Assembly: GCA_026413805.1 (NCBI GenBank)
Contig: JAOAKE010000004.1
Coordinates: 1-36,862 of the forward strand
Reading direction: 5' to 3'
From: Candidatus Micrarchaeota archaeon
GTDB taxonomy: Archaea; Micrarchaeota; Micrarchaeia; Anstonellales; Anstonellaceae
Length of the DNA stretch: 36,862 nt
Position 1 is the stretch's first letter, and every line of letters begins with the position of its first letter. Position numbers and translations under genes: made by a program. The notes below the pieces were generated by a model. The model searched no databases and was not told where the DNA came from. It saw nothing but the letters and a program-made list of their open reading frames with translations. Below are positions 21,136 through 33,684 of the stretch, in pieces.

Positions 21136-21156
21136 GTTGCTCTTCTGCCTCTGCAA

Positions 21157-21165
21157 TTAATATAA
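21157..21165. promoter_or_regulatory. Candidate bidirectional TATA element shared by the Lrp gene and tRNA-Gly(TCC)
   Basis: TTAATATAA lies about 22-35 nt from both the Lrp ATG (21135) and the tRNA 5' end (21192). Confidence 0.5.
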
Positions 21166-21191
21166 GGCTATCTCAAAGTAAATTAATCAAA

Positions 21192-21434
21192 GCGGACGTA
21201 GTATAACCTGGCTAGTATCTTGGCCTTCCATAGGGAAACCCCCCGGCAATCCCTTGGTGGTTTCCTCTACCTTCCCCACAGGTTGCAAGAAGGTAGGATA
21301 AAGGGAAACCCCCCGGCAATTTGGGGCGGTTTTCCGCAAGCAGAAGAAAGTCAAAGGTCCGGGTTCAAAAACCAGCCATTCCTGCAATTTTGCAAGCAGG
21401 CTTGGAATTGGCCCTGAAAATCCCGGCGTCCGCA
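21192..21434 (+). tRNA. tRNA-Gly(TCC) with two introns (37/38: 21231-21348, 118 nt; 59/60: 21370-21420, 51 nt)
   Basis: Acceptor GCGGACG/CGTCCGC, D-arm GTAT..GTAT, anticodon stem TTGGC/GTCAA with loop CT-TCC-A^A, T-arm CCGGG-TTCAAA^T-CCCGG. Junction helices CTTC/GAAG and TTCA/TGAA, each followed by an AA^N bulge. Confidence 0.9.
21232..21320 (+). repeat. 19-bp direct repeat AGGGAAACCCCCCGGCAAT inside the tRNA-Gly(TCC) intron
   Basis: Identical copies at 21232-21250 and 21302-21320. Confidence 0.93.
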
Positions 21435-21444
21435 TTTCTTTTTC
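21435..21444 (+). terminator. Oligo-T archaeal-type terminator after tRNA-Gly(TCC)
   Basis: TTTCTTTTTC immediately after the discriminator base. Confidence 0.5.
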
Positions 21445-33575: not shown

Positions 33576-33684
33576 GGGGTCGTGGCGTAACCTGGTAGCG
33601 CGGCAGGCTCCAGATCACGCTTGTGCCCGCTGCACAAGCACCAGAATACACCTGCATGTTAGGGTTCAAATCCCTACGATCCCA
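33576..33684 (+). tRNA. tRNA-Trp(CCA) with a 36-nt anticodon-loop intron (about 33614-33649)
   Basis: Acceptor GGGGTCG/CGATCCC, D-arm GCGT/GCGC, anticodon stem GCAGG/CCTGC with CT-CCA-G^A, T-arm TAGGG-TTCAAAT-CCCTA. Confidence 0.88.

Follow-up and report, generated by a model that had tools for sequence, protein, structure and literature searches.

A hairpin-repeat intron in a micrarchaeal tRNA-Gly gene, probably an ordinary substrate of the splicing endonuclease

Introduction

What is a 118-nucleotide (nt) structured intron with a duplicated hairpin doing inside an archaeal tRNA-Gly gene? The question is raised by the tRNA-Gly(UCC) gene in a 36,862-nt stretch of DNA (hereafter the window) from a Candidatus Micrarchaeota archaeon (assembly GCA_026413805.1, contig JAOAKE010000004.1), whose genome is available as 0.88 Mb in 63 contigs and is 93.5% complete. 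A first, sequence-only reading of the window had suggested that the intron might be a functional RNA or a conformational control on tRNA-Gly maturation. The follow-up described here gives a plainer answer. The stretch 21231-21348 is probably an ordinary tRNA intron at the canonical 37/38 position and a predicted substrate of the splicing endonuclease EndA, with a body built from an expanding hairpin repeat. By its distribution it looks like a spreading repeat rather than a Gly-specific device.

A canonical intron and its predicted splicing

The gene occupies 21192-21434 on the plus strand and is interrupted by two introns, as read from the sequence and by comparison with relatives. Once 21231-21348 and 21370-21420 are taken out, the remaining 74 nt make up a tRNA organized as in the intronless orthologues. 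Exon 1 ends with A37 (21230), and A38 (21349) and GTCAA (21350-21354) follow intron 1, which sits one nt 3' of the anticodon; its removal restores a canonical tRNA, and the junction is the same in the intronless orthologues. The intron had thus been correctly placed from the sequence, its boundaries matching those set by the orthologues. The sequence-only reading had overlooked the second intron, in the T-loop, the failure of tRNA finders on the gene, which ARAGORN and the Rfam tRNA model both miss, and the presence of the repeat beyond the locus.

The three hairpins read in the intron (H1, H2 and H3; Table 1) each have a pair probability of ~0.92 (0.91-0.93 for H2) in the partition function of the whole 243-nt precursor, and they are present in the minimum free energy (MFE) and centroid structures too. 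The folding z-score of the isolated intron is modest, only -1.82 against 200 shuffles. The 19-mer that H1 and H3 had been said to share is an exact duplicate (21232-21250 and 21302-21320). For an 18-mer with at most three mismatches 0.03 chance matches are expected, and two or more matches occurred in 0/100 shuffles.

Three elements of a canonical splice site can be drawn: the anticodon stem (h), a CUUC/GAAG helix, and the 3-nt bulges C36 A37/U and A A/A38 (slashes mark the cuts). The outer helix h' is not built from the two ends of the intron; H1 stands there, giving a relaxed version of the bulge-helix-bulge motif. With the acceptor stem, the anticodon stem and the splice helix all enforced, the fold is 2.0 kcal/mol less favourable than the MFE structure, and the ending GAAGAA/A is common to several orthologous introns. 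In the proposed mechanism, exon nucleotides C32-C35 would pair with GAAG (21343-21346) and the two flanking 3-nt bulges would hold the cut sites. The hairpins would contribute at most a helix flanking the 5' cut site and compact folding, with no regulatory role.

The genome encodes a splicing endonuclease of a type that can cleave motifs of this kind. The EndA gene is a single 445-amino-acid open reading frame (ORF) with two matches to tRNA_int_endo (catalytic-type domains), and residues 54-445 match chain 4fz2_A at E 1.3e-132, a full-length match. The structure 4FZ2 is cited in the paper on the crystal structure of the ARMAN-2 epsilon2 EndA, in its available text a broad-specificity enzyme (PMC3488258). 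According to the accessible portions of the two reports, this enzyme cleaves the bulge-helix-bulge motif in both its strict and its relaxed form, at 37/38 and 59/60 (PMC3488258, PMC3239211), and disruption affects 56% of tRNA genes in ARMAN-2, with introns at these same positions (PMC3239211). The three-unit epsilon2-type EndA of the genome would also accept the relaxed motif of the T-loop intron of tRNA-Gly.

A family of hairpin modules

The first lead to a repeat family came from a search with part of the gene, in which the H1-H2 region was found to be 80% identical to a sequence elsewhere in the same genome. The repeated module is ~50 nt long. Its lower stem has the core GAAACC/GGUUUC, extended by 2-3 pairs past a bulged base; then come a one-base interruption on the 3' side and a variable upper stem and loop, and the module closes with a single-stranded pyrimidine tail (ACUUCC, CUUCCUCC; CUUCC(UCC) in the description of the unit). 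A profile search of the genome with a hidden Markov model (HMM) found 17 copies in sense orientation, all with E 1.6e-4 or better, and the covariance model R1 recovers 16 of these at E 5.7e-5 or better. Eleven copies lie in introns of eight tRNA genes (Gly, three Thr, two Pro and two Ser). The 37/38 introns of Gly(UCC), Thr(UGU) and Thr(CGU) hold two each and those of Thr(GGU) and Pro(CGG) one each, and single copies are found in the T-loop introns of Pro(UGG), Ser(UGA) and Ser(CGA). The others comprise two tandem copies 3 nt behind tRNA-His, one abutting tRNA-Val, a diverged one 2 nt behind 5S rRNA, and two at contig starts; the RNA genes flanking the trailer copies were confirmed with Rfam. 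Four contigs (C17 at its end; C45, C49 and C60 at their starts) terminate inside repeat copies. The repeat therefore breaks the assembly, and copy numbers are lower bounds.

Copies in different isotypes can be closely similar. The T-loop modules of Ser(UGA) and Pro(UGG) are identical at 44/50 positions (88%) and the 37/38 modules of Thr(UGU) and Pro(CGG) at 39/51 (76%), so that identity of at least 80% between two or more tRNA types holds for the 50-nt module and not for whole introns. In every module-bearing intron the first module begins 0-3 nt past the 5' splice site, and in all RNA-gene contexts seen its 5' foot lies 0-3 nt from a known RNA cut site.

Against this background the architecture of the Gly intron becomes readable. 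Copy 1 is 80% identical over 52 nt to the repeat in the tRNA-His trailer on contig C55, with similarity reaching past the hairpin. Copy 2 repeats the 5' half of copy 1; its 3' half has diverged, and the 3' splice-site strand takes the place of the tail. The unit period is 70 nt here and 64 nt in the His/Val trailer. The intron body is, as far as its sequence tells, a 1.3-unit tandem array of the module, one full and one partial unit, closest to the tRNA-His trailer repeat. Other arrays (in the intron of Pro(CGG), behind tRNA-His, and in the related genomes G013 and G027) likewise combine a partial half-hairpin with n full units. Further, the tail pairs with a downstream complement to form an H2-like hairpin in at least 9 of 14 folded module-bearing introns, with the CUUCC core kept and the outer pairs compensated, which makes H2 standard family architecture. 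H1 and H3 are thus best read as a tandem duplication typical of the family, and H2 as the family's tail hairpin.

The fold is borne out by covariation. Alignment A1, made with MAFFT, has 93% of its cells paired, with changes on both sides in 5/12 pairs; the covariation score is reached by 0/500 shuffles, and slid controls are 35-52% paired. Among 44 matches from several genomes (a model-fitted alignment that includes 3 antisense echoes), 7/12 pairs change on both sides.

Filled and empty sites in relatives

At the 37/38 position and in the T-loop, 21 tRNA-Gly orthologues from the same genus were compared. At 37/38, six lack an intron, three have a 20-23-nt intron ending GAAGAA/A, one has a 36-nt hairpin, seven carry an intron of a different conserved family, two have other long introns, and two (G013 and G001) have a module-type intron with H1 and H2 but no H3. 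H3 is present in 0/21. The T-loop intron is absent in 6/21 and variable in the other 15. In G013 and G001 both H1 and H2 are conserved with compensatory changes, the tail hairpin being seen by eye. The comparison with orthologous introns cuts both ways for the sequence-only reading: in 19 of the 21 the intron is missing, short or unrelated, and in two species compensatory changes support a structured intron.

The module is patchily distributed. It was found in 9/22 other genomes of the genus (E 1e-3 or better), in 0/2 genomes of the family's other genera, in 1/16 genomes from other families, and in 10/150 other genomes of the order (E 1e-4 or better). Copy number ranges from 0 to 17, by far the highest being that of the genome studied here (G000). 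In relatives, too, the module opens 37/38 and T-loop introns; in Thr(CGU) it sits at the same tRNA and position in G000, G013 and G014, and in G001 and G007 it abuts the 3' end of the RNase P RNA. A loose pattern scan of 185,579 genomes gave mostly chance bacterial matches, besides three Micrarchaeota contigs later confirmed by the model; with ~300 chance matches expected by our own estimate, the scan is unusable for distribution. Three identical matches in viral contigs to the 18-nt 3' half were set aside as chance, the 5' half of the stem being missing (14 bits).

Relatives also carry the module antisense to transcription, in spacers adjoining protein genes. At 5/7 of these loci a long ORF on the opposite strand has its start codon 0-1 nt away from the 5' foot of the module; the ORFs at antisense loci include those for the large subunit of a NiFe hydrogenase, for RNA polymerase B' and for a nucleotidyl transferase. 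Four filled/empty comparisons were available, with 1-3 units at the sites in G013, G027 and G016. At the same four sites in the genome studied here, the spacer measures 2 nt between the hydrogenase genes and 5 nt at rpoB, and the other two have ordinary upstream regions. No terminal inverted repeats were shown at these four pairs. On the mRNA strand, the inverted module reads as a GGAGG-like box, the hairpin and then the start codon (ATG or GTG), and the 16S rRNA of the genome ends ...CACCUCCA. The inverted module may be a split ribosome-binding site bridged by a hairpin.

How the repeat may have spread

Collectively, these observations suggest a structured repeat that would spread at the DNA level and build up tandem arrays. 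Its position and orientation would then come under selection, and copies would survive only where a very compact genome tolerates them harmlessly: in tRNA introns that can be spliced out, in the gap separating a stable RNA from its terminator, or inverted in operon spacers, where they would still offer a ribosome-binding box spatially near the start codon. The tight abutment of the modules to functional boundaries would follow from the small size of such tolerated windows. On balance the Gly intron appears to be an ordinary spliced intron in function, and its make-up ties it to the repeat family.

Several results weigh against this account. In the unconstrained ensemble of naked RNA the anticodon stem and splice helix have a probability of only ~0.03. 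In-silico folding often gives native tRNA stems such low probabilities. The lower stem and tail hardly vary among paralogues, or between species that share only 71-78% identity in adenylosuccinate lyase; such conservation exceeds that expected of neutral filler and implies some constraint on the hairpin, whether from protein binding, from a role in processing or from the machinery that copies it. Wherever the module was seen with RNA genes it is strictly in sense orientation, and in protein-operon spacers it is antisense; this strict orientation requires selection or some mechanism. No mover was found, with 0 matches to Y1_Tnp, TnpB, DDE_Tnp_1 and RVT_1 in the 93.5%-complete genome. At the four filled/empty pairs a repeated half-hairpin borders the arrays, and there is no clear target-site duplication of the kind that, with terminal inverted repeats, would mark a MITE. 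A single ancestral Thr gene, and not transposition, could be the origin of the three Thr introns. Lastly, the stretch occurs only in DNA run X1 (share 0.93) and in no RNA run; four metatranscriptome runs contain ~2/53 sampled words each, and one of them, X19, represents a relative's tRNA-Gly gene with different letters where introns 1 and 2 sit, and runs X9 and X10 yielded nothing that aligns. A DNA contig of X1 that skips 21230-21347 was considered as a spliced product and rejected, since it is the intronless tRNA-Gly allele of another organism in the sample.

A bolder version of the spreading-repeat account, which is possible though doubtful, takes the module as a mobile cassette that creates new tRNA introns and so as a route of intron arrival in Archaea. 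The stable stem would serve as the helix by the 5' cut site, and the 3' part would supply or evolve the strand that pairs with the loop; for T-loop insertions, a strand TGAA or TGAAC would fit the near-universal T-loop sequence. With helix and strand both provided, an insertion in an anticodon loop or T-loop would be spliceable at once by a broad-specificity epsilon2 EndA. Behind stable RNAs the cassette would be tolerated, and inverted it would present a ribosome-binding box and hairpin before start codons.

Alternative explanations

The most serious rival, given the conservation, the strict orientation and the lack of a mover or target duplications, is that the module is a functional RNA element, such as a protein-binding site or processing signal, of which the Gly intron delivers two units. 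We consider this unlikely. It has in its favour that the sequence of stem and tail is conserved, that the stem flanks and upper stem covary around a constant bulge, that the 5' foot keeps its distance of 0-3 nt from an RNA cut site in every RNA-gene context seen, and that the module is retained at the same tRNA and position across species, as in Thr(CGU). By analogy with box C/D RNAs lodged in tRNA introns or cotranscribed with tRNAs, a cut just 5' of the module, by EndA or, behind a stable RNA, by RNase Z, might release a small RNA or ribonucleoprotein from introns and trailers; this extension is equally unlikely. However, the module is missing from the majority of genomes in the genus and in the order, orthologous tRNAs manage without it, the copy number varies from 0 to 17, and the same element stands antisense in mRNA spacers. 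Further, it has neither C/D nor H/ACA boxes, and the tail is mostly buried in H2. The earlier statement that no C box is present was upheld for the whole of 21192-21434, where the sole CTGA, at 21414, belongs to intron 2; C' and D' boxes are likewise missing from intron 1. Rfam returned no relevant family at gathering and permissive thresholds, riboswitches and box C/D RNAs included; the best permissive matches have E 0.67 or worse, far under the gathering scores, with no riboswitch among them and nothing of the snoRNA type near threshold. Inspection by eye also led to the rejection of a K-turn (no facing G-A pairs), an H/ACA hairpin (the stem is too small) and a hammerhead (core motifs absent). 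That trailer copies substitute for RNase Z was rejected because the genome encodes RNase Z, with a match above cut-off.

The sequence-only reading had also proposed that intron 1 is a switch on tRNA-Gly maturation in which H2 competes with the splice helix, perhaps in response to glycine or folates. The sequence coincidences behind it are real, since CCTTCC occurs both in the exon (21224-21229) and in H2 (21270-21275), and GAAG at both 21289-21292 and 21343-21346; moreover, genes for serine hydroxymethyltransferase and adenylosuccinate lyase lie downstream, and a strand swap between H1 and H3 has a probability of 0.07 in the precursor ensemble. A switch is nevertheless very improbable. The competing pairings (exon with internal GAAGG; internal CTTC with the terminal GAAG) reach ensemble probabilities of only 0.003 and <0.001, because H2, at 0.92, occupies both partners. 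The tail motif (ACTTCC / CTTCCTCC) is family-wide: introns of Thr, Pro and Ser tRNA genes contain it too, and it also follows tRNA-His, tRNA-Val, 5S rRNA and RNase P RNA, so that its match to the Gly anticodon loop is best taken as incidental. Most orthologues (19/21) lack a module-type intron although at least seven of them keep the tRNA-Gly/purB neighbourhood, and the absence of any match to an aptamer model, glycine and tetrahydrofolate included, leaves the glycine or folate link unsupported. Thus, of the earlier interpretation, the structured intron stands and the Gly-specific switch does not. Finally, that the duplicated hairpin is an assembly artefact, an outcome that would have undone the earlier reading, is scarcely credible. 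The same repeat family does break the assembly elsewhere, at the four contigs that end in repeats, but independent Logan contigs of X1, possibly the source sample, tile the same path across intron 1 without differences, and the layout of full and partial units recurs in arrays of other genomes. Depth in X1 suggests too few copies and not too many: the piece 21232-21320 stands at 33.4 and the flanking pieces at 8.3-9.0, and a loose end of 11 letters before 21232 is identical to the sequence just ahead of the second 19-mer. Depth and loose end together hint that the true genome may hold more tandem copies of the 70-nt unit than were assembled, a matter that contigs alone cannot decide.

Relation to known systems

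Related introns in different tRNA genes have a precedent in the 'intron transposition' of Thermoproteales, where intron families are common to different tRNA genes (Sugahara 2008, Fujishima 2010, both as summarized in the available text of preprint 10.64898/2026.10.13.758758). The present case resembles it in that related introns occur in different isotypes of one genome, at 37/38 and non-canonical sites, alongside a broad-specificity EndA. It differs in the lineage (Micrarchaeota, with an epsilon2 EndA), in the ~50-nt hairpin module arranged in tandem arrays, and in that the module has further sites outside introns, following genes for tRNA, 5S and RNase P RNA and, inverted, lying in mRNA spacers. 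ARMAN-2 (Ca. Micrarchaeum) belongs to the same phylum and shares introns at both 37/38 and 59/60, with as many as two in one gene, and a full-length epsilon2 EndA homologue; the substrates assayed there, however, had 13- and 25-nt introns, and the accessible sections of the two papers mention no long repeat-built introns (PMC3239211, PMC3488258).

Two further groups of elements invite comparison. A box C/D guide RNA is housed in the tRNA-Trp intron of Haloferax and other Euryarchaeota, and that intron, like the one studied here, is long, structured and conserved and could yield a separate RNA. Intron 1 of tRNA-Gly differs from it in the missing boxes described above. Bacterial genomes contain hairpin repeats and small non-autonomous elements such as REP/BIME, Correia, ERIC and the IS200/IS605-derived PATEs. 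These share with the module the short imperfect palindrome with a bulged base, many copies, tandem clusters, intergenic and operon-internal sites, and a patchy occurrence among close relatives. In contrast, the 93.5%-complete genome gave 0 matches to a Y1 transposase (RAYT/TnpA) or to TnpB, which sets the module apart from IS200/IS605-derived elements (PATE/REP); moreover, it lives inside spliced tRNA introns, which bacteria cannot offer. A full-text search, with supplements outside its reach, found no report for Micrarchaeota or DPANN of a hairpin repeat common to tRNA introns, RNA-gene trailers and mRNA spacers.

The finding is relevant to the way in which archaeal tRNA introns grow, and perhaps to their origin. 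One structured repeat in one genus occupies four kinds of place, namely introns (of four isotypes, at two positions), tandem arrays, stable-RNA trailers and operon spacers. As filled and empty orthologous sites are at hand, intron growth, and possibly gain, by a spreading hairpin repeat is directly testable.

Features of the locus and minor observations

Table 1. Features of the tRNA-Gly(UCC) gene and window, and module loci located elsewhere
Feature	Position	Strand	Basis or remark
Putative promoter, A/T-rich TATA-like box	21155-21166	+	~26-37 nt upstream of tRNA start; sequence reading
Exon 1, positions 1-37, anticodon TCC at 21227-21229	21192-21230	+	Common to 21 same-genus orthologues
Intron 1, canonical 37/38, 118 nt	21231-21348	+	Boundaries set by intronless orthologues
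Repeat module copy 1 (H1 and CUUCC tail)	21231-21278	+	Model R1, 50.9 bits, E 3.5e-12
H1	21234-21240 / 21259-21265	+	T21258 bulged
H2, module tail paired with downstream complement	21267-21296 (21267-21274 / 21289-21296)	+	Equivalent hairpin in other module-bearing introns
Repeat module copy 2 (H3)	21301-21349	+	Model R1, 36.3 bits, E 1.2e-7; 19-mer repeat
H3	21303-21315 / 21322-21335	+	C21327 bulged
3' half of bulge-helix-bulge, GAAG with C32-C35 (21225-21228); bulge A21347 A21348 / A38	21343-21349	+	Sequence reading and folding
Exon 2, positions 38-59	21349-21369	+	Comparison with orthologues
Intron 2, T-loop, ~59/60, 51 nt	about 21370-21420	+	Cut ambiguous within A run; 6/21 orthologues without intron 2
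Exon 3, positions 60-73	21421-21434	+	Comparison with orthologues
Putative terminator, T-rich stretch directly 3' of gene	21435-21444	+	Sequence reading
tRNA-Trp(CCA)	33576-33684		Intron ~36-40 nt at or near 37/38
Diverged module behind 5S rRNA	C27:1292-1454		Genome studied here
Module abutting RNase P RNA	L171:705-1009		G001
Module abutting RNase P RNA	L163:1245-1551		G007
Antisense array	L179:1501-1730		G013
Antisense array	L177:1441-1547		G013
Antisense array	L183:1200-1548		G013
Antisense array	L161:804-890		G027
Antisense array	L169:1501-1550		G016

The neighbours of tRNA-Gly are an AsnC/Lrp regulator gene on the minus strand and, downstream, the genes for adenylosuccinate lyase and serine hydroxymethyltransferase. 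The orthologous tRNA-Gly stands beside an adenylosuccinate lyase gene at seven or more loci (L190, L191, L193, L194, L197, L198 and L199), and the closest adenylosuccinate lyase loci show 71-78% identity. Intron 2 of tRNA-Gly is a long imperfect hairpin outside the module family; it ends CTGAAAA, like the T-loop introns of many orthologues.

Repeat-bearing introns make standard tRNA finders fail on this genome. With introns allowed, ARAGORN calls only 17 tRNA genes genome-wide and several of these wrongly, including a 'tRNA-Stop' and, as 'Phe(aaa)' and 'Ser(tga)', Thr genes with module introns. The tRNA-Trp(CCA) gene is the only tRNA in the window detected by Rfam and by ARAGORN with introns allowed. 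The tRNA-Val gene on C60 has an apparent D-loop intron.

Other intron families were encountered as well. A second conserved family (CCCTTT... AAAGCGTTC.CGGAAA) occupies the tRNA-Gly 37/38 position in seven relatives (L006, L008, L009, L010, L017, L022 and L024), and an apparent 37/38 intron in tRNA-Glu(CUC) of the genome studied here (C45:~210-285) resembles it, as judged by eye only. The Gly T-loop introns at L019 (in G010), L012, L013, L018 and L020 come from another family of hairpins with G/C runs, two tandem ~100-nt copies of which bring the tRNA gene of G010 to 299 nt.

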